A DNA stretch of 32,000 nucleotides, from NCBI RefSeq assembly GCF_900199515.1, contig NZ_LT963434.1, positions 1,472,180-1,504,179 of the forward strand, in the 5' to 3' direction. The translations under genes were made by a program, and so were the position numbers. Under the pieces are notes generated by a model, which was not told where the DNA came from, searched no databases, and saw nothing but the letters and a program-made list of their open reading frames with translations. Each line of letters begins with the position of its first letter. Position 1 is the stretch's first letter. Below are positions 18,491-32,000 of this stretch, piece after piece. This DNA comes from Massilicoli timonensis (GTDB taxonomy: Bacteria > Bacillota_I > Bacilli_A > Erysipelotrichales > Erysipelotrichaceae).

Positions 18491-19396
18491 TCACATTTCT
18501 TTTTCCCATCGGCTTTCAGCAGCTTTCCATTGTTGTGAAAACTCTATTTTTCCAACAGCCGCTAGAAAAGGTTCTGTCAAAAATGCCTTGATCGTTTTAA
18601 GCACAGTGCTGAAATGATCCGTTTTAGTGTCTATCTTCAGGCAGAATGCTTTCCACTTCTTCTGCATAGCAGGATCATCTGCAAAGCGCATAACCTGTTC
18701 AAACTGCTCTATCACAAAGCTATGTTCACGATTTTCGAAAGTTTTTTTCAGTGCTTCACTGAGTACTTTGCCGTCAAAATCAAATTTATTGGCAAGATAA
18801 TAAATATCATAGTAATCTTTCATTCGACTGGAAAATTCCATCAGAGTGAGGATTGCATCTATTTTCTCAGCAATCGTTGTTTCAAGAGAATAGGTATTTA
18901 CCACCGGTGCAGTGAAATCATCAAGCTGCGTCGGGATTTTTCGCTTTTCTTGTTTTGGTACGATCACATCGCCCACACCGAAGTCTATATGAAATGGAGT
19001 TCGCGTATTTTTAATACGAGCCACAATAGAAGTCCCGATACCGGCATATTTCTTAGCAACCGCAATAGGCGCAATATCGTTAATTTCAAAGGTAATAAAA
19101 TCATTGCCGGTAGACATAGATAGGATTTCATCCAGTACAGATTTTAACTGTTCGGGCGTATTTGGTACTTTTTGAAGTAGGAAGTCCACATCCATCGTTA
19201 CCCTACTATCAAAATTGGTAACGGAATAAATAAACAAACCACCTTTGAGGATAAGGTTTTCTGCATATTTGGACTTTTCCAAACGGCGCAAAAATTCTTC
19301 TTGACAGAAAAGTTGGAGGCAAAGCTGATAGCTTCTTCCGCTTTCTTTTGCCTTGTTTTTGAGCCGTGCAAGTACGGATGCGGCAATATCAGCCAT
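18491..19396 (-). CDS. abiEii: AbiEii/AbiGii-family nucleotidyltransferase toxin (DUF1814)
   Basis: The N-terminus SVLARLKNKAKESGRSYQLCLQLFCQEEFLRRL...ILKGG is characteristic of AbiEii toxins. About 300 aa. It overlaps the upstream antitoxin gene by 8 nt. Confidence 0.8.
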   Translation of the reverse strand: MADIAASVLARLKNKAKESGRSYQLCLQLFCQEEFLRRLEKSKYAENLILKGGLFIYSVTNFDSRVTMDVDFLLQKVPNTPEQLKSVLDEILSMSTGNDFITFEINDIAPIAVAKKYAGIGTSIVARIKNTRTPFHIDFGVGDVIVPKQEKRKIPTQLDDFTAPVVNTYSLETTIAEKIDAILTLMEFSSRMKDYYDIYYLANKFDFDGKVLSEALKKTFENREHSFVIEQFEQVMRFADDPAMQKKWKAFCLKIDTKTDHFSTVLKTIKAFLTEPFLAAVGKIEFSQQWKAAESRWEKEM

Positions 19397-20030
19397 TGAT
19401 CAACACCTCCATTACATTCATAACTTTTGTATAAAGATTCATCTCTTTTGCATATTTAGACAAGTTCACAAGGTTCTTTTTTTTATCAGCAGCATAAGCA
19501 TTGACAGCCTTATTGAAAATTTCATTGTCGAGTTTTGTGCGATACTTAAAGCAGTCACAAATTGTTCTTTCGCGGTCATATATAGGAAGCATGACGCCGT
19601 TAAAATTGCTTGTAGTTTTACCCATATCTAGGAAATCCTTTTGAATATAATAAGCCTTCATCGGAAATTCTTCAATATTCTTTACGGCACGGGTGGCTGT
19701 TCGCGGCACAGCAATAGACCATTTGCGAGGAGAAAAATCACTATATCCATAATGGAACAAGGCAGATTCCACACAAATAATTCCTTGTGGAAGGATTTCT
19801 CTTATCCACTGTTCCTCTGTTATATGATTGCTCTTTGGAAGCTGATAAATGCCTCTGCGAACCCTCTCGATAACTCCTTCTTTACAGAAAGCCGCTACTT
19901 CATATTTATTTATTCCGCTAGCGACAAAATCCGAAGTTTTTGCAACTCCTCCGTTATTTTCAATTACTTTTATTAAACTTTCTTTTTTATTCAAGCGAGC
20001 ACCAACTTTCTGCATACAAAAAATAAACAT
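19389..20030 (-). CDS. abiEi: AbiEi-family antitoxin/transcriptional regulator
   Basis: The N-terminal wHTH region (GGVAKTSDFVASGINKYEVAAFCKEGVIERVRRGIYQL) is typical of AbiEi. The start is ambiguous: TTG at 20039, ATG at 20030 or ATG at 20015. None has a clear SD. Confidence 0.75.
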   Translation of the reverse strand: MFIFCMQKVGARLNKKESLIKVIENNGGVAKTSDFVASGINKYEVAAFCKEGVIERVRRGIYQLPKSNHITEEQWIREILPQGIICVESALFHYGYSDFSPRKWSIAVPRTATRAVKNIEEFPMKAYYIQKDFLDMGKTTSNFNGVMLPIYDRERTICDCFKYRTKLDNEIFNKAVNAYAADKKKNLVNLSKYAKEMNLYTKVMNVMEVLING

Positions 20031-20041
20031 TGTATGCAATT

Positions 20042-22476: not shown

Positions 22477-24228
22477 ATGGGCATGAGAAAAACTTTGCAA
22501 AAGATATACGCACTGCTGGAATGGAAACAGAAAGTAATCTTTATCATGATTTTGTTGATCATGCTTCTTTCTTCCGCTTTGACACAAGTTACACCAAAAG
22601 CCATTGGCTGGCTGACAGATGACATTTTTGCCGAGGGAAGAATGGCGTTTATCGATTTGCTGCCGATGCTACTGTTGATCTTAATTGTGAATGTCGTAAA
22701 TGAACTGCTTAAAATCTGGCGTAGACTGTTGGTGGAGGATACAGCGACCAAAACTGAAAAGAAAGCGCGCACACTTGTCATTGCTTCTCTCATGAAAGCG
22801 CCGCTGCGTTATTTTAAGGAAAACATGACCGGCAATATCCACGGCAGGTTGAATCGCTGTTTAGAAGGAACGATCAAACTAGAAAAATTGATATTTATGG
22901 ATTTAGCGCCAGCAGTATTTAATAGCATTGCTGCTGTGATTGTGATTTTTACGACCCTGCCTTTTACATTGGCGCTGCCGATGTTGCTGGTAATACCGAT
23001 CGGTGTATTGATCGTACTTCGACAGATCACAACACAAAAAGGCATACGAATTGCATTGCTGGAAACAAAGGCAAATATGGATGGTTCGCTGGTGGAATTG
23101 CTGAATGGAATCGAAGTGATCCGAATGGCAAACAGCACAATGATCGAAGAGCATCGTTTTTCGATCAAATCTGAAGAACTGCGTGAGAAAGAAATGAAGC
23201 ATCATAAACAGATGGCGAAATATGATGCGATGAAGTTTTTTAATGAAGTCTTTTTTACAGTGTTCATTATCGGTGCATCTGCTTATTTGGCGACACAGGG
23301 AATCATCAGTGTCGGTGCAGTGCTGACTGCCTATCTTTGTTTTTCTCAACTGATCAAACCTCTAGAGGAACTGCATCGGATTTTAGATGAATTATCAGAG
23401 AGTTTTGTACTGGCAGAGGATTTTTTCAAAATGGCGGAAATTGCCTGTGATTTTTCTTATCAGCCAGTTTCGGCGAAGCAACTGCTGTTCAAAAAGCACG
23501 ATATGATCTTCGCAGAAAAACTACGGCTAGCCTATGAATCAAATGAAGAAGTGCTGAAAGGCATTGACCTGAAAATAAAGAGCGGTTCTTTTATTGGGAT
23601 AGCCGGGCCCAGTGGGTGTGGTAAATCTTCACTGATCAAAGCAATTTGCAAGTTGGAAAAAAGTGAAGGAGCGCTATATATCGATGGTAGGGAAATAGAA
23701 TCACTGTCGCGGGAAATGTTGTCGGAGTTGATTGCATTGGTACCGCAAAATCCTTTTTTGATCGCAGGAACGATTTATGAGAATATCTGCTATGGATTGA
23801 AAGTGATGCCGAGTGAAGAGGAAGTCATGCAGGCGGTCGCAAAGGCAGGTCTCACGGAATTTGTGGAAAGCCAGCCGCAGAAGCTTCATACGCTGATAGC
23901 GGAAAGAGGCAATAATTTATCAGGCGGGCAACGGCAGCGAATCGCATTGGCGAGGATCTTTTTGCGTAAACCGAAAGTTTTAATTTTAGATGAGGCGACT
24001 TCAGCGCTGGATAATACTACAGAGCGTTTTGTTCAAAAGGAAATTGAGCGGTTGAAAGAAGAAAACGATATGACGATTATCTCCATAGCACACCGATTGA
24101 CGACATTACAAAACTGTGATGAGATCCTGGTAATGTATAACGGAATGATCGTACAGAAAGGGATTTATAAAGAATTGATTGAAAAAGAAGGCATTTTTAA
24201 TGACATGTATCATGGCAGATTAAAATGA
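22477..24228 (+). CDS. Fused ABC exporter (N-terminal 6-TM domain plus C-terminal ATPase; MsbA/MdlB-like half transporter)
   Basis: Walker A GPSGCGKSS, signature LSGGQRQRIALAR, Walker B VLILDEATSALD, H-loop SIAHR. The N-terminal half is hydrophobic. RBS is AAAGGAG. Confidence 0.85.
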   Translation: MGMRKTLQKIYALLEWKQKVIFIMILLIMLLSSALTQVTPKAIGWLTDDIFAEGRMAFIDLLPMLLLILIVNVVNELLKIWRRLLVEDTATKTEKKARTLVIASLMKAPLRYFKENMTGNIHGRLNRCLEGTIKLEKLIFMDLAPAVFNSIAAVIVIFTTLPFTLALPMLLVIPIGVLIVLRQITTQKGIRIALLETKANMDGSLVELLNGIEVIRMANSTMIEEHRFSIKSEELREKEMKHHKQMAKYDAMKFFNEVFFTVFIIGASAYLATQGIISVGAVLTAYLCFSQLIKPLEELHRILDELSESFVLAEDFFKMAEIACDFSYQPVSAKQLLFKKHDMIFAEKLRLAYESNEEVLKGIDLKIKSGSFIGIAGPSGCGKSSLIKAICKLEKSEGALYIDGREIESLSREMLSELIALVPQNPFLIAGTIYENICYGLKVMPSEEEVMQAVAKAGLTEFVESQPQKLHTLIAERGNNLSGGQRQRIALARIFLRKPKVLILDEATSALDNTTERFVQKEIERLKEENDMTIISIAHRLTTLQNCDEILVMYNGMIVQKGIYKELIEKEGIFNDMYHGRLK

Positions 24229-24390: not shown

Positions 24391-24876
24391 ATGAAGGGAA
24401 GCGGATTTCGGAAGATCGCAGATGCCTACCATGCTGCTCATAATTATCGGGATGAATTGGAGCTTAAATTTTATTCCGATGCAGCTTCGTTTCAAGTTAC
24501 ACTGTATAATTTGAATTATGGAACTGCAATAAACGCAACTAAAGCTATGATTGAAGATGAAAATGTTGCGATTGCTCCTGATTATCTTGCGATTGAGGTT
24601 GCGATTGATGGATTGAACGCAAGCCAAACTACGATTAAAAAAGCAAAAACAATATTCGCAAGCATGGGCATTGATGGCATCTTTGGACGTTCCGACATAG
24701 CCGCAATTACAAGCGATTCCGTTACTGCTGCCGGCAAACTCATTATAAAGCTGAAAAACGCAGATTTAATTGAAGCCGTCAGCGGGTTTGGAAAAGGGAA
24801 ATACAAATTTAAGGTTCCAAAACAAAAAGATGATACCTGTTATCAGGCATACGGTCGATCATGGACATTCGATTAA
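24391..24876 (+). CDS. Hypothetical protein; resembles the C-terminal part of AlbA_2/HATPase_c_4 putative ATP-binding regulators (possible 5'-truncated remnant)
   Basis: It begins at ..KGSGFRKI.., followed by ELELKFYSDAASFQVTLY and a C-terminal wHTH-like segment. In full-length family members this region sits at the end of a protein of more than 400 aa. There is no SD before the ATG, and the frame stays open upstream only to 24343. Confidence 0.35.
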   Translation: MKGSGFRKIADAYHAAHNYRDELELKFYSDAASFQVTLYNLNYGTAINATKAMIEDENVAIAPDYLAIEVAIDGLNASQTTIKKAKTIFASMGIDGIFGRSDIAAITSDSVTAAGKLIIKLKNADLIEAVSGFGKGKYKFKVPKQKDDTCYQAYGRSWTFD

Positions 24877-25319
24877 GCATATACAAGTTCCGTCAGCACA
24901 ATTTTCTATGCAAAGATGTGAATGATGTTGGGGAGGGGCAAATTACCGAATATCAGTAGGTTTTTGCAAACTAGCATGCAGTATTCTTTCGGAATGCGGA
25001 ATAAGGTAATCGTCTTCCTATGATAAGTGCCACACATCTGTTCAGACAGTGATTTCATAAAATGACAGCCTTTTCTGTATTGGTTTTCAGCGGTCATGCG
25101 GTCCTGTAACTGCATTTCAGTTTATTGCAAATATATGTATCCAGTGGCTGAAATCACCTTTTGCATAACAACTCTTGTACTTCCATTTTGGAAGAATAAA
25201 GATAAAATAGAAAGCCTATTAGATCATAGCAAAAAGGCAAGTGATTTAGCAGAATTCAAAACCTGTAATACGGGATATCCTACATCTCTTGCCTTTTGTT
25301 ACGATTCATTGCATGCCGT

Positions 25320-26564
25320 TTATAATTTACGCTTGATGATTTCTTCAATAAAACGAAGCAGTGTACCTTTGCTGAACTGTTTATAATATAGCGCAAACTC
25401 GTTATATATAATTTGATTTAAGATAGAATTGTCATAAGATATTTCTTTGAAGAAAGAAAATAAGCGTCGTTCTCTTTGATAAATTGGCAGATCGTACTCA
25501 AAATATGTTTTCAGATCTACATAAAGCAAAGAAGCATTTTCCATAATTGCACACTGGCTGATGATTTGGAATGGGTGCTTTGTAATATTGGAAGCGGAAT
25601 AATAAAGCAAGACAGCGATAATAGGAACTTTCGTTTGTAAAAAGTTATCCTCAAATAACTGTATGACTTTATCATATTCTTTATGATCAAACGAGTGAAT
25701 GATCGTATTGATAAGCCAAGCAAATTTCTTTTTCGGGTGAACCGGTTTGGTTTTGATCATCTGCTCCACTTCTTGATAGATTTCTGAATCATCTTCATTG
25801 TTTTCATGCACATAATTCAGTTTCATCACATAGACATCAAAAGAGCGATTATAGTTTTCGTTCTTTAATAAATCGTCCAGTAAAGCGTTGATTTGATAAA
25901 TATGTTTCGGAATGGATACAGTAGAAGTATCATATATCAATAGATCAGTTTCCAAAATGATTGAAGATAAATTCTGCTTTTGTACTTCTTCTAAAACTTT
26001 TCCGCATGCTTTCATATCTAAATGGTATTTATAATAGGAGCGAAAACACAGATCATATAACATGATTTGCAATTCATCGGGGAACAGAAAAGAAACATGC
26101 AAAAAGTGTTCCAATAAGTCGATGTCAATTTTTTCTACCTTATGATGGAAATCTTGAACAGCTTCTAAGAGCAGCCGGTATTCATTTTCAAATACAATAT
26201 CTGCTGCGAGCGGTTTAAGCAATGCTTCGCATAACTGATAGACTCCTTCATAATCAAGATAAAGAAACGCGTGATAGAGCGCATGGACAGTTTCCATATG
26301 CTTGGAAAAATAATCAGAAGCGCCTTCTTCATAACGAAGATCAAACTTGTCAAGCAGTTGAAGATACACTTTATCTTTAATTAAAGTCGGATTTTCAAGT
26401 AGTTTTTGATAAGTATGAAAAGAACAAATCGTTACTAGATTTGCATTGTGCATGGTAAATCCGAATTTTGTTTTAGAAAACAAAGCGTCGCCGTCTTTCG
26501 TGTATGTTTCAGCGCGATAGATTTCCAGTAATTTTGAAAGATGTTCTTTTTCTATGATCGGCAT
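25320..26564 (-). CDS. Hypothetical helical-repeat protein; candidate RNPP/NprR-like peptide-responsive regulator
   Basis: 414 aa with RBS AAGAGGA. It is rich in Y/F/L-spaced helical repeats. The N-terminal ...VTICSFHTYQKLLENPT-LIKDKVYLQLLDKFDL weakly resembles the helix 3-5 region of Rgg/PlcR-type HTH domains (ICxxSxLSxIExG). It lies directly downstream of a secreted-peptide gene. The functional call is inference. Confidence 0.35.
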   Translation of the reverse strand: MPIIEKEHLSKLLEIYRAETYTKDGDALFSKTKFGFTMHNANLVTICSFHTYQKLLENPTLIKDKVYLQLLDKFDLRYEEGASDYFSKHMETVHALYHAFLYLDYEGVYQLCEALLKPLAADIVFENEYRLLLEAVQDFHHKVEKIDIDLLEHFLHVSFLFPDELQIMLYDLCFRSYYKYHLDMKACGKVLEEVQKQNLSSIILETDLLIYDTSTVSIPKHIYQINALLDDLLKNENYNRSFDVYVMKLNYVHENNEDDSEIYQEVEQMIKTKPVHPKKKFAWLINTIIHSFDHKEYDKVIQLFEDNFLQTKVPIIAVLLYYSASNITKHPFQIISQCAIMENASLLYVDLKTYFEYDLPIYQRERRLFSFFKEISYDNSILNQIIYNEFALYYKQFSKGTLLRFIEEIIKRKL

Positions 26565-26594
26565 GGTGTTATTCCTCTTTAATACTCTTCAATG

Positions 26595-26622
26595 ATAAAT
26601 AAAATGTCAGGATCCCCCTGAC
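26595..26622 (-). terminator. Hairpin plus U-rich tract between the peptide gene and the 414-aa gene (attenuator / partial terminator)
   Basis: Minus strand GUCAGG-gggau-CCUGAC (26622-26606), followed by AUUUUAUUUAU. Confidence 0.45.
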
Positions 26623-26627
26623 AAATG

Positions 26628-26765
26628 TTAGTCGATATAATAACAATTTGGCCCTGTGCAATATGGAGCAGGTACCGGATCTCCGTCATTGGCAAATACC
26701 GTTGTCGATGTAAATGCAATCGTGAAGATAAAGCAAGACAATGCCGCTAAAACAACTTTTTTCAT
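26628..26765 (-). CDS. Unannotated 45-aa secreted peptide (Sec signal peptide plus 20-aa two-Cys C-terminal part)
   Basis: Manual reverse-complement translation gives MKKVVLAALSCFIFTIAFTSTTVFA|NDGDPVPAPYCTGPNCYYID*. A strong RBS AAAAGGAGG sits 6 nt before the ATG (26765). It has its own extended -10 promoter and a classic n-h-c signal region with a VFA cleavage motif. It falls below the ORF-track size cutoff. Confidence 0.7.
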   Translation of the reverse strand: MKKVVLAALSCFIFTIAFTSTTVFANDGDPVPAPYCTGPNCYYID

Positions 26766-26795
26766 AATAAACCTCCTTTTCCCCGATTTGGTTAT

Positions 26796-26804
26796 ATTAT
26801 AGCA
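26796..26804 (-). promoter_or_regulatory. Extended -10 promoter element of the secreted-peptide gene
   Basis: Minus strand TGcTATAAT (26804-26796), about 20 nt upstream of the RBS. Confidence 0.5.
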
Positions 26805-26931
26805 TAGTTTAGTATGAGGTGGAACGGCTTTATAGAAATTGCAATAATTAGCAAAACCTGTAAATTATTCGAGGATATTATAAAAAAATGCAAAAACACA
26901 AAATGTATAGATTTCTTTAATAATAGTGTGA

Positions 26932-26948
26932 TATAGTCAGACTATAAT
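26932..26948 (+). promoter_or_regulatory. Perfect palindrome overlapping the -10 box of the maturase operon (candidate operator)
   Basis: TATAGTC-A-GACTATA (26932-26946) has 7-bp arms. TATAAT at 26943-26948 shares 4 nt with the right arm. There is no good -35, which suggests activator dependence. Confidence 0.45.
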
Positions 26949-27003
26949 GTAATGTGTGATTGATTTGATAATTTTTTGGGGACTTTTTGAGGGGAGGGAT
27001 TTG

Positions 27004-28404
27004 ATGCAAACAAGACCTTTCATTCAATTATTTAAGACCACGTCGCATTATTATTTTTACGATGCGTACGTCAATCAAATCTCTGAACTCTCCGCAGCCG
27101 GCTATCAGTATTTGAAAGAGCATCAAATGATTGATTGTTTTTATAATGAAGAAATAGCACAATTATATAAAGAAGGATTTTTGCATGAAAATCCTATTTT
27201 AACATTTCAGCATCCGGCTACGGATTTCGTTGAAGATCTTACGACAAGAAAAGCAGGCACATTGGTCTTACAAATAACGCAGAACTGCAATTTACGCTGT
27301 TCCTACTGCCCTTACTCGCAAAGCGGCGAAAAACACAGGCATCACACCAATCAAAATATGAGCTGGGAGACCGCTAAGAAAGCAGTCGATTTCTACTATG
27401 ATAAATCCATCGATGCCGATACGGCAAATATTTCTTTTTACGGTGGAGAGCCGTTGCTGCAGTTTTCTTTGATGAAAGCAGTCGTCGCCTATTCCAAAAA
27501 GAAATTTGAAGGGAAGAAATGTGTGTTCAGCATTACGACCAACGCAACATTATTGACAAAAGAAATTGCCGATTTTTTGATTACAAATGAGTTTCGTCTG
27601 GCAATCAGTTTAGATGGAGATAAAGAAAGCAATGATCGCAATCGTAAATTTGTTTCTCAAAAAGGCAGCGTATTCGAGAAAGTCATCGAAACATTGCAGT
27701 ATCTCTATGAAAACGCACCGGAATTTGCGAAAAAGATCAACTTAAGCATGGTGATCGATCAAAGAAAAGATCTGAAAGGATTTCTGCATCTGTTTCGGGA
27801 ATATCCGTTTCTGAATCAAATGCAGATCAGCGTCAGCTTAATTGAAGATGATTATTTGGAAAATGAGGTTAGAGAGTCGAAAGCTTTTTATGAAGAATTT
27901 AGCTATTATCGTTTCTTGTCTTATTTAAGTGTCATATCTCCGCTGGATTTTACTGAAGATCTTAAATTTTTCGCTTCGATGAAAGAGAGCTATAAAAAAT
28001 TGGTGCTGCCATTTCAAGCGTCCGCAATCGGTAAAACGGCAATTCCAAGCGGGCAGTGCATTCCGGGCAATACCAAAGTAATGGTAACGGTGCAGGGCAA
28101 ATTATTCCCTTGTGAAAAAGTGAGCGAACGCAGAGAGGATTATTGCATCGGCACGCTTGATACAGGATATGACTACGAAAAGATAAAGGAAATCCTGAAT
28201 TTTTCAAGATATACCTTTGCCCTTTGTCGAAACTGTCCGGCCTTTCGTGAATGCACGCTCTGTTTCAAAACACACGGAGCGGGCGGTTTTAGCAGTACCG
28301 CTACCAAGATGAAATACTGTGCATTATGCAAACAGAATTTCGTTGAAGATTTGCGGGTACGCATGTATTTTAAGGAAATGGCGGATTGGAAAGGACGTGG
28401 ATAA
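27004..28404 (+). CDS. Radical SAM / SPASM-domain peptide maturase (CcpM-like, Cys-rich-peptide maturase type)
   Basis: CNLRCSYCPY (CxxxCxxC) follows a ~95-aa N-terminal domain. A GGEPLL motif is present. The C-terminal auxiliary-cluster cysteines are CIPGN...FPCEK, CRNCPAFRECTLC and YCALC. The ATG at 27004 follows GAGGGGAGGG; the track's GTG extension is unsupported. Confidence 0.85.
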   Translation: MQTRPFIQLFKTTSHYYFYDAYVNQISELSAAGYQYLKEHQMIDCFYNEEIAQLYKEGFLHENPILTFQHPATDFVEDLTTRKAGTLVLQITQNCNLRCSYCPYSQSGEKHRHHTNQNMSWETAKKAVDFYYDKSIDADTANISFYGGEPLLQFSLMKAVVAYSKKKFEGKKCVFSITTNATLLTKEIADFLITNEFRLAISLDGDKESNDRNRKFVSQKGSVFEKVIETLQYLYENAPEFAKKINLSMVIDQRKDLKGFLHLFREYPFLNQMQISVSLIEDDYLENEVRESKAFYEEFSYYRFLSYLSVISPLDFTEDLKFFASMKESYKKLVLPFQASAIGKTAIPSGQCIPGNTKVMVTVQGKLFPCEKVSERREDYCIGTLDTGYDYEKIKEILNFSRYTFALCRNCPAFRECTLCFKTHGAGGFSSTATKMKYCALCKQNFVEDLRVRMYFKEMADWKGRG

Positions 28405-28405
28405 G

Positions 28406-29461
28406 ATGGGGAAAACAGTGATCTTTCCATTTACGCTGGAGAACAGCAGCTTCTGTCAGGCATATTTAGATCAAGATGACGCCTGTGTGCTCGCATCCTT
28501 ATCGGGAACCGGTACGATCGATCAAAGCATTGGCAAAGCGCTGAATCGTTTGGATGGTACAGGCAGGATCGTCGATATCCACAGCATAGACCTTCGTGAG
28601 GTCGATAAGATCATTCTGCTTGAAAGCAAAAACAGCGAACTATATGAACACATTGACGAACTGCTTGTGAAATGGAATGCCTATCAAATAGAAGTGATCA
28701 GTTTTTCAGATAAATGCAGAGAGTTCATGCCGATGGCTGTTTTGCAGTGTCGTGATTTTCATGTTACTGATTCCTATCACTATGTGTTTATCGACAAGCC
28801 GATCATTTTTGTCGGTGGTATCAAAGAAACATCTGAAATTGCATGGCTCTCTTATCAGATCAAAAAAAGATTCGAGAAAAGAAAGCTCAAAAGCATCGTG
28901 ATTTCCCGATACGGATACAGCATCGATCAAGAATGCTATCCATATCCCGATGAATTTGTATCCGATCGTATAAGCGCAGAGTATAAAGTCTTACTGCTGA
29001 ATCAGTATCTGCAGTTTCTGATCCGAAAGCATGAACCGGATGTCATACTCATCGAAGTGATCGGTGGACCGTTAAGATTTGATTATCATGTATTTAATTA
29101 TTTCGGTGTCTATTACTATATCACTTCACAGGCGGTAAGCGCCGACTTATTTCTATGCACACTGCCGATCGGCGAATATGACGATGCGTATTTTATGAAG
29201 CTGAATGATTATATCCGACATAAATTTGATCTTACGATCGACGCTGCCTGTTTGATGAATATCAAATTTGAAGATAGTTTGAGCGTCACGATCGAAAATG
29301 ATGATGAATACTACTATGTATCTGATTCGATCTTGCAGCGATACTTAGAAAAGAACAGACAGGTGCGGGTCGTTCCTTTCGGCGCATGCACAGATGAAAG
29401 TTATTTAGACGCGGTATTTGCCGCCATATTGAAAAAACTGGAAGGTGCAGAAGATGAATGA
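28406..29461 (+). CDS. Peptide-maturation-system protein of unknown function (accessory partner of CcpM-type maturases)
   Basis: 351 aa, with its ATG 1 nt after the maturase stop. I see no recognisable catalytic motif. The position between the rSAM and ACP-like genes matches my recollection of a conserved clostridial cassette. Confidence 0.55.
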   Translation: MGKTVIFPFTLENSSFCQAYLDQDDACVLASLSGTGTIDQSIGKALNRLDGTGRIVDIHSIDLREVDKIILLESKNSELYEHIDELLVKWNAYQIEVISFSDKCREFMPMAVLQCRDFHVTDSYHYVFIDKPIIFVGGIKETSEIAWLSYQIKKRFEKRKLKSIVISRYGYSIDQECYPYPDEFVSDRISAEYKVLLLNQYLQFLIRKHEPDVILIEVIGGPLRFDYHVFNYFGVYYYITSQAVSADLFLCTLPIGEYDDAYFMKLNDYIRHKFDLTIDAACLMNIKFEDSLSVTIENDDEYYYVSDSILQRYLEKNRQVRVVPFGACTDESYLDAVFAAILKKLEGAEDE

Positions 29462-29723
29462 ACGTGAATGGATAGCGGAATTGGAGAAGATATTAGAAAC
29501 GATCTATCAAAAAAAGATCAGGATCGAAACGGTACTGTCAAACAGTCTGTTTGGCGCACCGTATTACTTTACGGCAATCGAACTGGTGTATTTCGTGTAT
29601 TTGCTGGAGAATGATTATTCGATCGCTTTTGACAAAAAATTCTTCTTAGATCGCAGCAATCTTTCTATGCAGGATCTCTTGACGTATTTGGTGCAGGCGA
29701 CGAATAAAAATTCAATAAACTGA
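29454..29723 (+). CDS. Acyl-carrier-protein-related small protein lacking the phosphopantetheine serine
   Basis: 89 aa. The helix pattern ...LFGAPYYFTAIELVYFVYLLENDYSIAF...MQDLLTYL parallels ACP ...DLGLDSLDxVELVMxLEEEFGIEI...V.DLv.Yi, but DSL is replaced by YYF. It overlaps the previous gene by 8 nt. Confidence 0.55.
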   Translation: MNEREWIAELEKILETIYQKKIRIETVLSNSLFGAPYYFTAIELVYFVYLLENDYSIAFDKKFFLDRSNLSMQDLLTYLVQATNKNSIN

Positions 29724-29743
29724 GAAAGAAAGGAGGGAATGAG

Positions 29744-29911
29744 ATGTTGAAGAAAGTAAACAAAGCGACTTTGATGACAACGGAAATTGCGCCGAAGGCA
29801 ACTTGTTACTGTAAGGCGACTTGCTTTGGACCGGCTTCTGAGAGATCGAATTTTTATGAAGCTAATCAACAAGCTGCTTCTAGATACGGCAAAGTTTCAG
29901 ATGTTCAGTAA
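29744..29911 (+). CDS. Unannotated 55-aa RiPP precursor peptide (three Cys in a CYCKATC core)
   Basis: Manual translation gives MLKKVNKATLMTTEIAPKATCYCKATCFGPASERSNFYEANQQAASRYGKVSDVQ*. The RBS AAAGGAGGG (29729-29737) sits 6 nt before the ATG. It is the last gene of the maturase operon and is followed by a GC-rich hairpin. It falls below the ORF-track cutoff. Confidence 0.7.
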   Translation: MLKKVNKATLMTTEIAPKATCYCKATCFGPASERSNFYEANQQAASRYGKVSDVQ

Positions 29912-29920
29912 TCATGGGCA

Positions 29921-29953
29921 ATAGGGGGGAGTACAGGGTTTTGCTCCCCCTAT
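29921..29953 (+). terminator. GC-rich hairpin after the precursor gene (attenuator / stabiliser; no clear U-tail)
   Basis: ATAGGGGGGAG (29921-29931) pairs with CTCCCCCTAT (29944-29953) across a 12-nt loop. Confidence 0.5.
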
Positions 29954-30021
29954 GTCATAATAAAAGAAAAACAATCATAACGAATTGATAAAGAGATATA
30001 GATTAAGAGGAGGGATCAAAT

Positions 30022-30915
30022 ATGGAAAAGATCGTAGAAATTAAGGGATTATGCAAAAAATTCGGTAAGACTGAGGTACTGCATGACGTATCATTTGATA
30101 TTTATGAAGATGAGATCGTCGGATTTATCGGACCAAACGGAGCCGGTAAAAGTACGACAATGAAATGTATGTGCAATCTGATCTTTCCAAGCGCAGGTAC
30201 GATAAAGATATGCGGCTATGACATCGTAAAAGAAAGAGAAAAAGCATTGGCAAAACAGTCCTCGTTGATCGAAACTCCGGGATTGTTTCCAAATTTGACC
30301 GGAAAAGAAAACATCGAATATTTTGCCTCTTATAAAAAAATACCGCAGTCTAAAATAGAAGAGATCATTCAATTCATGAATTTAGGCGATGGTCTTTACA
30401 GACGAACCGCAAAATATTCACTGGGAATGAAACAGCGATTGGCGTTAGGGATCGCCTTGTTATCCGACCCGAAATTGTTGATCTTGGATGAACCGACCAA
30501 CGGGCTGGATCCGGCAGGTGTATTTGACCTTAGAAATCAGTTAAAAACACTGGCAAAAGAAAAGCATGTATCCATACTGGTATCCTCTCATCAGTTAGGA
30601 GAATTAGAGAAAATATCCGACCGCTATATTTGCATCAACAAAGGAAAGATCGTAGAAAATCCAAAGCAGATGAAAAATGACAGCTGCTATCACATTACAA
30701 TGAAAAAAACAGAGCAAGTGGAAAAGTTGATGGAACAGGCAGCATCTGTCTACTCTTACACTTATCAGGAAAACGGATATGTCATACTGGTAAAAGAAAA
30801 TCACAAAATACAGGATATTTTGCATTTATTTCAAAAAGAACAGATCGAATATGAGGACATCACGAAAAAAGTCATTGATATTGAAACCATGTATAGTGAA
30901 CTATATGAGGCATGA
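30022..30915 (+). CDS. ABC-2 type transporter ATP-binding protein (bacteriocin export/immunity type)
   Basis: Walker A GPNGAGKST, signature YSLGMKQRLAL, Walker B LLILDEPTNGLD, H-loop SSHQ. RBS is AAGAGGAGGG. Confidence 0.85.
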   Translation: MEKIVEIKGLCKKFGKTEVLHDVSFDIYEDEIVGFIGPNGAGKSTTMKCMCNLIFPSAGTIKICGYDIVKEREKALAKQSSLIETPGLFPNLTGKENIEYFASYKKIPQSKIEEIIQFMNLGDGLYRRTAKYSLGMKQRLALGIALLSDPKLLILDEPTNGLDPAGVFDLRNQLKTLAKEKHVSILVSSHQLGELEKISDRYICINKGKIVENPKQMKNDSCYHITMKKTEQVEKLMEQAASVYSYTYQENGYVILVKENHKIQDILHLFQKEQIEYEDITKKVIDIETMYSELYEA

Positions 30916-30917
30916 TC

Positions 30918-32000
30918 ATGTTAAAGTTAGAATTGAAACGACTGTTTAAGAGTCCGAAAAATATAGGGGTCGTCTTCTGTATGATCGTGTTTTCGTTTTT
31001 TATCCTGTACCAGTTGAATGAAAAAAGAGTCGAATATGATGAAGTGCAGTTAAAGGAACTGTATGCGGCGAGTGCGATTGCCAAACAAGAAAAAGAACAA
31101 CTGAAATATGTAGAAGAAACGCCGGAAGTGGCAGAAGCAAATGAGTATTGGGATTTCGAGGGCAGATATGCCAGTTATCTGCGCGGAAAATTTAATCCTC
31201 TAAGCGATAAAGATATTTTTACGAAAGAAGAACGAACTACCCTTGAAAAAGATCGTTATCGGCACATATTAGATGCGTGGGATAAAGAATACAATAAGGC
31301 ATATTTGGAACTTGCCAAGACACAGAAGGAATTGAAAAAAGAAATCATATTGCGAGAGTATTTGTTGGGACATAAGATCGAGCAGTATGATACGCCGTAT
31401 GAAGTAAATACGATGAACTATTTAGTGAATTTCTTTCAATCACCGAATGTATTTGTCTTTCTGATTTTAATCGCATTTGCTTCGATCGATGTCATTACCA
31501 AGGATTTTGACTGTGATAGTTATAAACCGTTATATACGATGCCGGTTGCCAGAAAGAAAATTATTCGATCAAAGGTCGAAGCGGTATTGTTGTTTGCGCT
31601 GTTTGCGATTAGTGTTGCCATTCTCCTGCCGTCAGTTGCGGCCGCATGGATCGGTGGAACAGGAACTTTGGAATATCCGCAAGTGATGGAAGATTTCAGT
31701 ATATGGATCGCATTTGATTATGTGCTGAAATGTATGTTGATCTTGCTGGTATTGATTTTGTTTACGATTTCTGTCATTACTTTGGTATCTGTTTCTTTAA
31801 GAAACGGTACATCGGCAATGATGGCGATCGGTTCCTATTTCATTATTTTATATTGCATGAGTGAATTAGAACTTCGCTTCCCCAATGTTTTATACTATAT
31901 TCCGCTTTTCTCTGTTGATGTTGCTTATACCGTTAATGTCAAATACTTTTCGATCCTGCTGTTCAGTGTTTGTTCGCTGTTTATGATTATATTAAGCATC
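30918..32000 (+). CDS. ABC-2 type transporter permease (partial, runs off the window)
   Basis: The ATG lies 2 nt after the ATPase stop. My translation is open for 361 codons to the window end. TM1 (GVVFCMIVFSFFILY) is followed by a ~165-aa charged helical loop and then several TM segments. It is absent from the ORF track because no stop lies in the window. Confidence 0.7.
   Translation, partial: MLKLELKRLFKSPKNIGVVFCMIVFSFFILYQLNEKRVEYDEVQLKELYAASAIAKQEKEQLKYVEETPEVAEANEYWDFEGRYASYLRGKFNPLSDKDIFTKEERTTLEKDRYRHILDAWDKEYNKAYLELAKTQKELKKEIILREYLLGHKIEQYDTPYEVNTMNYLVNFFQSPNVFVFLILIAFASIDVITKDFDCDSYKPLYTMPVARKKIIRSKVEAVLLFALFAISVAILLPSVAAAWIGGTGTLEYPQVMEDFSIWIAFDYVLKCMLILLVLILFTISVITLVSVSLRNGTSAMMAIGSYFIILYCMSELELRFPNVLYYIPLFSVDVAYTVNVKYFSILLFSVCSLFMIILSI

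Follow-up and report, generated by a model that had tools for sequence, protein, structure and literature searches.

The question raised by this locus of the human-gut bacterium Massilicoli timonensis is which peptide product is made by four tightly packed genes, and what part two accessory proteins, encoded between a maturase and its presumed substrate, play in making it. The locus lies in a 32,000-nucleotide stretch of contig NZ_LT963434.1 (positions 1,472,180 to 1,504,179; GCF_900199515.1), referred to here as the window, and all coordinates are positions within it. The genes, all on the forward strand, encode a CcpM-like radical S-adenosylmethionine (rSAM) maturase (27004-28404; 466 aa from the ATG), a TIGR04066-like accessory protein (28406-29461; 351 aa), hereafter P2, an acyl carrier protein (ACP)-related protein presumed to be the partner subunit of P2 (29454-29723; 89 aa), and a precursor peptide with three cysteines (29744-29911; 55 aa). 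A 1-nt gap separates rSAM from P2, the P2 and ACP-related genes overlap by 8 nt, and 20 nt lie between the ACP-related gene and the precursor, giving a compact core of four genes in 2.9 kb; purine-rich, Shine-Dalgarno-like sequences (GAGGGGAGGG and AAAGGAGGGA) are found upstream of the first (rSAM) and last (precursor) genes. An earlier reading, made from the sequence alone, had described four coupled open reading frames (ORFs) at 27004-29911, and translation reproduces their sizes and spacing exactly. The window probably holds the core of a cluster for a peptide synthesized by the ribosome and post-translationally modified (RiPP), on a deep branch of the CcpM/CLI_3235 system and working by the mechanism proposed below. 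The CcpM-type gene set was known already as a family defined by profile hidden Markov models (HMMs), and the sequence-only reading was essentially right in identifying it; new in this analysis are the fold of P2, the absence of the carrier serine from the ACP-related protein, natural P2-ACP fusions and the allelic hypervariability of the C-terminal half of the precursor.

The family assignment comes from HMM searches, for which the curated NCBI cut-offs are 500 bits for TIGR04068 (CcpM), 200 for TIGR04066 (peptide maturation system protein), 70 for TIGR04069 and 26 for TIGR04065 (CLI_3235 bacteriocin precursor). The rSAM enzyme aligns over its full length with TIGR04068 at 416.7 bits (E 1e-124), P2 matches TIGR04066 over residues 3-346 of 351 at 114.3 bits (E 6e-33), and the 89-aa protein matches TIGR04069 at 18.6 bits (E 0.0019); each score is under the cut-off of its model, and the P2 of a canonical control locus (L007) reaches 417 bits against TIGR04066. 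The family names and the TIGR04065-TIGR04069 accessions, as given in the sequence-only reading, are thus correct, and the HMM check proposed for the two accessory genes finds both of them, at E 6e-33 and E 0.0019, while neither passes its threshold. Pfam recognizes Radical_SAM and Fer4_12 in the maturase and leaves the other three proteins of the cassette without a match. Among rSAM models, CcpM (417 bits) is the best by a factor of two over the next family, the lachnocin rSAM (211), and is followed further by RumMC (182), PapB (175), the SCIFF maturase (131) and anSME (87). A grouping with the anaerobic sulfatase maturases had been named beforehand as a result that would overturn the assignment; at just 87 bits, and with the wrong gene context, that identity is rejected.

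The nearest relatives of the window cassette are likewise sub-threshold, L096 and L097 scoring 443/155/39 and 377/97/35 bits against TIGR04068/TIGR04066/TIGR04069. Three of the nearest relatives, placed on contigs (L094-L097), have the layout of the window, in which an ABC-2 transporter comes after rSAM, P2, ACP-related protein and precursor. With 28.9 bits against TIGR04065, above the cut-off of 26, the L096 precursor ties this branch to the CLI_3235 peptides. By these comparisons, the window cassette is a deep, sub-threshold branch of the CcpM/CLI_3235 system, sister to the canonical members and unnamed by the curated models. Gene callers find the four genes in identical order on 12 independent metagenome contigs (the sister contigs), and the rSAM-P2-ACP order is kept in the window, on these contigs and in nearly all of 80 species-level loci. 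As the triad recurs in about 80 species-level genomes, the cassette is not a chance arrangement of ORFs. Around it extends a larger cluster of which the cassette is the centre, reaching from an exporter gene at 22477 to beyond the window end through an ABC-2 transporter that starts at 30022; its borders are a DUF1846 gene on one side and, on the sister contigs, fhs on the other.

The wider family was delimited by an exhaustive HMMER search of 1.84 billion representative proteins, which returned 775 representative P2 clusters at 50% identity from Clostridia, Paenibacillus and many gut taxa; the nearest full-length relative of the window P2 is just 28% identical. Loci were retrieved by a pattern scan with the canonical-only P2 alignment A4, since alignments A2 and A3 were too diverse, and this gave 80 loci from species-level genomes of Clostridia, Paenibacillus, Lachnospiraceae, Ruminococcus and a few Bacteroidota metagenome-assembled genomes (MAGs). 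About 55 of the 80 canonical loci include an ABC exporter. Their 72 distinct precursors follow the pattern MKKLGKK...ETVEAY with clustered CxC motifs and a polar tail, and clustered Cys residues are present in all 75 family precursors examined. With the window P2 as the query, a single-protein pattern scan found no close homologue in the species-representative genomes of GTDB, and a word-indexed protein search returned same-lineage matches only; the cluster may vary between strains, or may have escaped the scan. Several loci are variations on the standard layout: two rSAM-P2 sets or a duplicated P2, in tandem or close together, are seen in L049, L054, L055, L062, L070 and L080, and two or three tandem precursor genes in L012, L013, L035, L043, L068, L072 and L086. 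Four loci come from MAGs outside the Firmicutes (L022, L055, L058 and L077, labelled Caulobacteraceae, Bacteroides, Bacteroidetes and Marinilabiliaceae) and reflect either horizontal transfer or binning contamination. One canonical P2-family representative in alignment A4 also matches Radical_SAM and Fer4_12, being an rSAM-P2 fusion or a mis-called gene.

The window precursor, MLKKVNKATLMTTEIAPKATCYCKATCFGPASERSNFYEANQQAASRYGKVSDVQ, combines a short Lys-rich leader (about residues 1-20), the clustered motif C21-x-C23-x3-C27 and a polar tail with hypervariable residues 32-53; it has only three Cys, whereas canonical precursors have 4-9 or more. A hypothetical protein of Massilicoli timonensis (Erysipelotrichaceae) matches it at 100% identity. 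An HMM of the 72 canonical precursors ranks it first of the 349 ORFs of the window (E 0.0067). The rank is the same when three intermediate precursors are added (E 0.0016) and when the HMM is made from these three alone (E 0.00064, residues 3-49 aligned), and in each search the second-best window ORF is more than 100-fold weaker. The intermediates carry C-x-C-x4-C (L095 and L096) or four Cys as C-x-C-x3-C-x-C (L097), and the window precursor occupies the precursor slot of these nearest relatives, after the ACP-related gene. Directly after its stop codon lies a stable stem-loop (29917-29956, +) without a U-run, probably an mRNA-stabilizing or attenuating hairpin (-21.8 kcal/mol, z = -3.6, none of 200 shuffled sequences as stable in RNA folding), which contig L001 retains with small changes.

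The maturase has the cysteine pattern of its family throughout. The cluster-binding CxxxCxxC is formed by C95, C99 and C102, and the SPASM region contributes C352, C370, C408, C411, C417, C420 and C439; all 3+7 are 100% conserved across 70 homologues, which bears out the earlier description of a CxxxCxxC enzyme with a Cys-rich SPASM C-terminus, while the enzyme as a whole is 29-37% identical to canonical members. Among solved relatives, the best is CteB (PDB 5wgg, E 1.6e-24; also 5why), a SCIFF maturase that synthesizes the Cys-to-Thr C-gamma thioether of a ranthipeptide. The window enzyme aligns with CteB from the end of the N-terminal domain through SPASM and has the CxxxCxxC and the SPASM Cys pattern in common with it. 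Six 'catalytic site proximity' positions are defined on CteB (PMC10288494) and were transferred through a phmmer alignment to 5wgg. They read P103, Y146, T178, S202, E371 and K372 in the window, [V/A/P], Y, T, S, E and [R/K] in the CcpM family, and F, F, T, S, H and Q in CteB. Y146, T178, S202 and E371 are invariant in the family and K372 is K or R, such that the window enzyme agrees with the 70 family members at five of the six positions. Since this active-site shell is the family's own, the window branch should perform the canonical CcpM reaction.

Comparison with characterized synthases indicates both kinship and distance. Relative to CteB, positions 3 and 4 (T and S) are the same, while P, Y, E and K stand in place of F, F, H and Q; the last SPASM spacing reads C-x2-C in place of C-x3-C; CteB works without P2 or ACP partners; and the SCIFF model scores the window enzyme at 131 bits against a cut-off of 425. 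RumMC (ruminococcin C sactipeptide) and PapB (freyrasin ranthipeptide), the next-best characterized HMM matches, are gut or Firmicute enzymes that form Cys thioethers on Cys-rich cores, yet the window enzyme is far under their cut-offs of 720 and 340 and differs in precursor family and accessory genes. From its sequence, the window maturase would be similar, though not identical, to a thioether synthase. Its N-terminal domain of about 90 residues is presumably an RRE-like leader-recognition domain; the alignment starts at residue 28-33 with the N-termini of the SCIFF and RumMC models and at residue 50 with CteB. A Pfam search gave no match of this domain to an RRE/PqqD model. Set against canonical CcpM/CLI_3235 systems, for example the SacP23 cluster, the window is alike in triad order, the 3+7 Cys, five of six proximity residues, a serine-less ACP fold, precursor layout and a nearby ABC exporter. 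It is unlike them in its P2 (at most 28% identical), its rSAM (29-37%), its three-Cys precursor, the lack of a subtilase, the placement of the precursor after the ACP-related gene and before an ABC-2 transporter, and an orphan pair upstream that encodes a secreted peptide and a 414-aa protein.

In the proposed mechanism, the N-terminal domain of the maturase would bind the leader of about 20 residues. Reductive cleavage of SAM would follow, and the sulfurs of Cys21, Cys23 and Cys27 would be joined to acceptor carbons in the C-terminal segment, a thioether formation as in CteB, RumMC and PapB that would lower the mass by 2 Da per link. P2 and the ACP-related protein would act as one complex needed by the maturase, most likely as a non-hydrolytic partner that holds or scaffolds the substrate or, alternatively, as a second modifying activity. 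The product would be exported by a 583-aa ABC transporter and the producer protected by the downstream ABC-2 transporter; the leader would be cut off by an unlinked protease, as this branch has lost the subtilase of the canonical clusters. The variable C-terminal half would be kept in the mature product and would set its target or receptor specificity. Cross-linking of Cys through thioethers is the most likely chemistry of the maturase, argued by analogy only because the family has no solved chemistry.

Several results weigh against this account. The three larger proteins of the cassette all score under the curated cut-offs, and the 55-aa precursor has no TIGR04065 match at E <= 0.01 and no Pfam match at E <= 10; the earlier claim that the gene set matches the CcpM cassette is therefore sound for the homology of three proteins and too strong for their thresholds and for the precursor. 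Solved chemistry for any CcpM-family member is absent from the literature covered by a full-text search, with most subscription journals beyond reach. Proximity positions 5 and 6 are E and K/R in the window and family versus H and Q in CteB, and thus the reaction could differ. Neither P2 nor the ACP-related protein has a recognizable catalytic motif, and the role assigned to their complex is a guess. A leader peptidase, S8 subtilase included, is missing from the 32-kb window and from the sister contigs; the S8 subtilase is frequent but not universal in the family, at about 50 of the 80 canonical loci. Finally, the hypervariable segment of the precursor could reflect recombination between alleles rather than selection on the mature product.

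A minor but serious possibility is that the same cassette catalyzes an rSAM reaction other than thioether formation, such as a C-C or C-O cross-link, an epimerization or another Cys modification, and so yields a new RiPP class. The case for it is that the family has no chemical characterization in the literature searched, related SPASM maturases are polyfunctional (PMC10288494), proximity positions 1, 2, 5 and 6 are unlike those of CteB, and two universal accessory proteins are present that no known sacti- or ranthipeptide synthase needs. Thioether chemistry is favoured over it by the substrates, which are defined by clustered Cys in 75 of 75 precursors examined, by the conserved T and S at positions 3 and 4, and by the fact that every characterized enzyme among the top HMM and PDB matches makes Cys thioethers. 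As the nearest characterized enzymes (CteB, RumMC and PapB) all form thioethers, the product may fall within the sacti- or ranthipeptides. The proposal in the sequence-only reading of a new RiPP class was in this respect an overreach; such a class is possible for the window product without being the default expectation.

Published work on the family that the full-text search found consists of a note describing a Roseburia cluster in silico (PMC4573289), a pig-microbiome study of 2026 in which two of the CcpM-set accessions are mentioned, and SacP23, for which a whole canonical Paenibacillus polymyxa cluster expressed in B. subtilis gave a heat-stable anti-MRSA peptide (PMC10731318). The peptide was found at m/z 3404, versus a predicted core of 4455 Da, with an N-terminus blocked to Edman degradation, and according to the authors its thioether links have yet to be worked out (PMC10731318). 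The earlier statement that product chemistry was unpublished thus stands for structure and links, none of which was found solved, but overlooked that a cluster of this family had already been expressed to give an active peptide.

Within the precursor, allelic hypervariability is limited to the C-terminal half. Four precursor alleles occur across the window and the 12 sister contigs, differing by 9.5-16% almost entirely within codons 32-53. Between the window and L001, nucleotide divergence is 1.5% for rSAM, 2.1% for P2, 1.9% for the ACP-related gene and 1.3% for the ABC ATPase, compared to 16.1% for the precursor, in which the first 89 nt are identical and 27 of the last 79 nt changed (eleven non-synonymous and six synonymous codon changes). 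This 3' clustering has a binomial P of about 1e-28 against the local background of 1.3-2.1% in the flanking genes. Over 9.6 kb, a sliding window detects two divergence hot spots, namely the 3' half of the precursor and part of the 414-aa gene. All alleles agree in the leader, the Cys motif and FGPA and, within the variable half, N36, F37, Y38, A40, N41, A44, Y48, G49, K50 and V51 are unchanged; their spacing is compatible with one face of a helix, which would make them candidate acceptor or contact positions. A fifth variant of 49 aa (P0007) is seen only as a protein from a 1349-bp contig. It lacks KATCYC, one unit of the near-repeat KATCYC-KATCFG, leaving a single Cys, and may be a natural slip deletion or an assembly artefact.

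Such localized allelic diversity suggests strain-level competition or recognition in this human-gut bacterium. It also prompts the view that the product is a strain-specific signalling peptide (a pherotype) and not an antagonistic bacteriocin, given that discrete alleles of the C-terminal half among near-identical strains resemble pherotype polymorphism and that ranthipeptides are reported to serve as quorum-sensing signals in Clostridia. This is unlikely, because the precursor is directly followed by a multi-permease ABC-2 transporter of the lantibiotic-protection type with variable copy number, which fits immunity better, because SacP23, the only tested relative, is antimicrobial, and because a separate candidate signal-receptor pair is already present in the cluster.

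P2 was described in the sequence-only reading as a 351-aa protein with no recognizable motif, a view that its predicted structure revises. An AlphaFold2 model built with a 70-sequence alignment (pLDDT 91.2, pTM 0.91) has as its best full-length Foldseek matches in the PDB the DUF1611 proteins 2obn and 2g0t and the N-acetyltransferase DgcN (7xrj), with TM scores of 0.50-0.57, E values of 6e-7 to 4e-5 and a probability of 1.00 at 9-13% identity; 2obn is the closest at E 5.7e-7 and TM 0.57. The next matches cover the C-terminal domain only and are SIMIBI-class NTPases (BioD, ParA/MinD-like proteins, HypB and SRP GTPases). The model confidently predicts for P2 the whole two-domain architecture of DUF1611/DgcN, in which a Rossmann-like N-terminal domain is joined to a C-terminal domain of SIMIBI/P-loop fold. 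Sequence echoes of this relationship are weak: the P2 profile finds 2g0t at E 0.037 and SRP54 at E 0.008, and one P2-family member matches Pfam DUF1611_N at E 7e-4 and DUF1611 at E 0.071. The window P2 has no Pfam match and hence no sequence membership of DUF1611 (PF07755/PF17396), sequence searches of the PDB with P2 and with the ACP-related protein gave nothing usable, and a link between TIGR04066 and DUF1611 is not found in the literature searched, within the limits of access given above. The Walker A position reads VGGIKETSE in the window, GGxxExxD in the family consensus and GxxExTxK in canonical members. With the motif degenerate, NTP hydrolysis is unlikely, and P2 as an NTPase is rejected. 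The invariant polar residues of P2 (N47, N199, N231, D247 and N285) are located at the C-terminal edges of strands.

The ACP-related family aligns with Escherichia coli AcpP in a profile comparison (hhalign probability 89%, E 2e-6), including the helix II motif, and the window protein aligns with 68 family members that have a G...R/I-D/E-L-V-Y motif in common. The column of AcpP Ser36, the phosphopantetheine serine, is occupied by Pro in 39, Ala in 25, Ser in 2 and Tyr in 2 of the 68 members, and by Ala in the window. Having Pro or Ala in place of the carrier serine, the protein cannot be a conventional carrier, and a true carrier role is rejected. The label 'ACP-like' given to it earlier is thus apt for the helical-bundle fold and homology with AcpP, and misleading as to function, the phosphopantetheine serine being missing. 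Fusions of P2 to the ACP-related domain occur naturally in three of the 150 best P2 representatives (P0154, P0028 and P0117), with ACP-domain E values of about 1e-15 in P0154 and P0028. These fusions, together with the 8-nt gene overlap, argue that P2 and the ACP-related protein act as one complex. In one strain pair, non-synonymous versus synonymous changes number 12 versus 9 in P2 and 16 versus 50 in the other cluster genes (Fisher P 0.007); this excess is not significant in another pair (P 0.16) and is suggestive only. The P2 haplotypes A92D, Y93H, C115Y and Y171C co-segregate with the precursor alleles that carry R39, likewise suggestive only, as four alleles under tight linkage are indistinguishable from hitch-hiking.

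The same two proteins have been considered as a second enzyme, for instance a DgcN-related N-acyl or N-acetyl transferase that caps the peptide N-terminus with the ACP fold serving as an adaptor. DgcN is among the best structural matches of P2, the N-terminus of recombinant SacP23 is blocked, P2 has the invariant polar residues listed above, and P2-ACP fusions exist; nevertheless, a transferase is rather improbable, as the N-termini of cross-linked peptides are often blocked for other reasons, none of the conserved His, Cys, Ser or Lys residues expected of a transferase is present in P2, the match is at the level of fold only (9-13% identity, TM 0.5-0.57), and the ACP-related protein cannot carry an acyl-phosphopantetheine. 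A broader and tentative idea, in our estimate a minor but real chance, is that RiPP maturation directly involves an obligatory heterodimer of P2 and the serine-less ACP-fold protein, either as a substrate-presenting chaperone that reads the hypervariable C-terminal half of the precursor or as a peptide-capping transferase, and that the product of the CcpM family, with this three-Cys Erysipelotrichaceae branch, is a structurally new class; if true, this would be a mode used by no known rSAM RiPP pathway. The CcpM family is large and has been named by HMMs for years, and the DUF1611/DgcN-like fold of P2, the non-carrier ACP and the natural fusions turn the roles of its two universal accessory proteins into testable hypotheses. 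The window offers a simple entry to that family, with a three-Cys precursor, a compact operon and four core alleles on nearly isogenic backgrounds.

Upstream of the cassette, an ABC half-transporter (22477-24228, +; 583 aa) is the likely peptide exporter. It has Pfam ABC_membrane and ABC_tran only and matches the NHLP bacteriocin exporter model at model positions 137-682, without an N-terminal C39 peptidase domain. The following ORF (24391-24876, +; 161 aa), which has no Pfam or NCBIfam match and whose called length is 118 or 161 aa depending on the sister contig, is probably decaying and probably outside the system. Between it and the cassette, two genes lie on the reverse strand. One encodes a lineage-restricted, all-helical protein (25320-26564, -; 414 aa), a candidate cytoplasmic receptor or regulator with same-lineage homologues only among 5.8 billion proteins, no family match and no helix-turn-helix; its AlphaFold2 model is all-helical and unreliable (pLDDT 40). 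Its gene holds the second hot spot (25900-26040) and differs by 14-26 aa between strains. The other encodes a pre-peptide (26628-26765, -; 45 aa), a candidate signalling peptide in which a Sec-type signal sequence is joined to a tail of 20 aa with two Cys, NDGDPVPAPYCTGPNCYYID. The gene is predicted on every sister contig, is transcribed divergently from the rSAM operon, and is separated from the 414-aa gene by a terminator-like hairpin and T-run (26605-26623, -; TGTCAGGGGGATCCTGACA then TTTTATTTAT). Its strain variants (T37S/Y42I/Y43F and Y42H) are all in the C-terminal tail, and the two genes may form a co-evolving peptide-receptor pair that regulates the divergent operon. In comparison with RRNPP-type systems, the signal sequence and the adjacency are seen, with no family match and a receptor model at pLDDT 40.

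That the 45-aa peptide or an unlinked gene, rather than the 55-aa ORF, supplies the substrate is very hard to credit, even though the 55-aa ORF misses TIGR04065 and Pfam and the 45-aa gene is always adjacent and also has Cys, for the 55-aa ORF is the sole window ORF that resembles family precursors, near full length, sits in the precursor slot of the nearest relatives, has a strong ribosome-binding site and a trailing hairpin, and carries a C-x-C-x3-C much like the C-x-C-x4-C found in the precursors of L095 and L096, whereas the 45-aa peptide is rejected as an rSAM substrate on account of its Sec signal, a kind of sequence that does not serve cytoplasmic rSAM maturases as a leader, and its lack of a counterpart in the 80 canonical loci. 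A 53-aa signal-sequence ORF is located directly upstream of rSAM in L096 (5362-5523); its tail, ...GDGEYFD, resembles the ...CYYID and ...CIFID endings of the 45-aa peptide, and a secreted peptide may recur in this sub-branch.

Downstream of the precursor, the ABC ATPase (30022-30915, +) matches TIGR03740 at E 5e-59, below the cut-off, and with the first ABC-2 permease (30918-32000, +; frame open to the window end) belongs to a lantibiotic-protection-like ABC-2 transporter that likely confers self-immunity. An ATPase-plus-permease set is likewise found 3' of the precursor in L094-L097, and ABC2_membrane genes are called on L001, L088 and L092. On L001 (8504-14169), L088, L089 and L092, a 378-aa permease is followed by 0, 1 (323 aa), 2 or 3 (456 aa) further copies, after which comes a 587-591-aa ATPase on the sister contigs; this varying permease number among near-identical strains is either real or the result of assembly collapse. 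An Rfam search over 22-32 kb found nothing, a repeat and operator search of the divergent promoter region gave nothing convincing, and promoter-like matches are no commoner than in shuffled sequence. The G+C content over 25000-27000, which covers the 414-aa and 45-aa genes and the promoter region, is 33-35%, versus 38-46% over most of the window. A type IV toxin-antitoxin pair, consisting of an AbiEi antitoxin and an AbiEii nucleotidyltransferase toxin, lies at 18491-20039 (-), about 2.5 kb upstream of the cluster.

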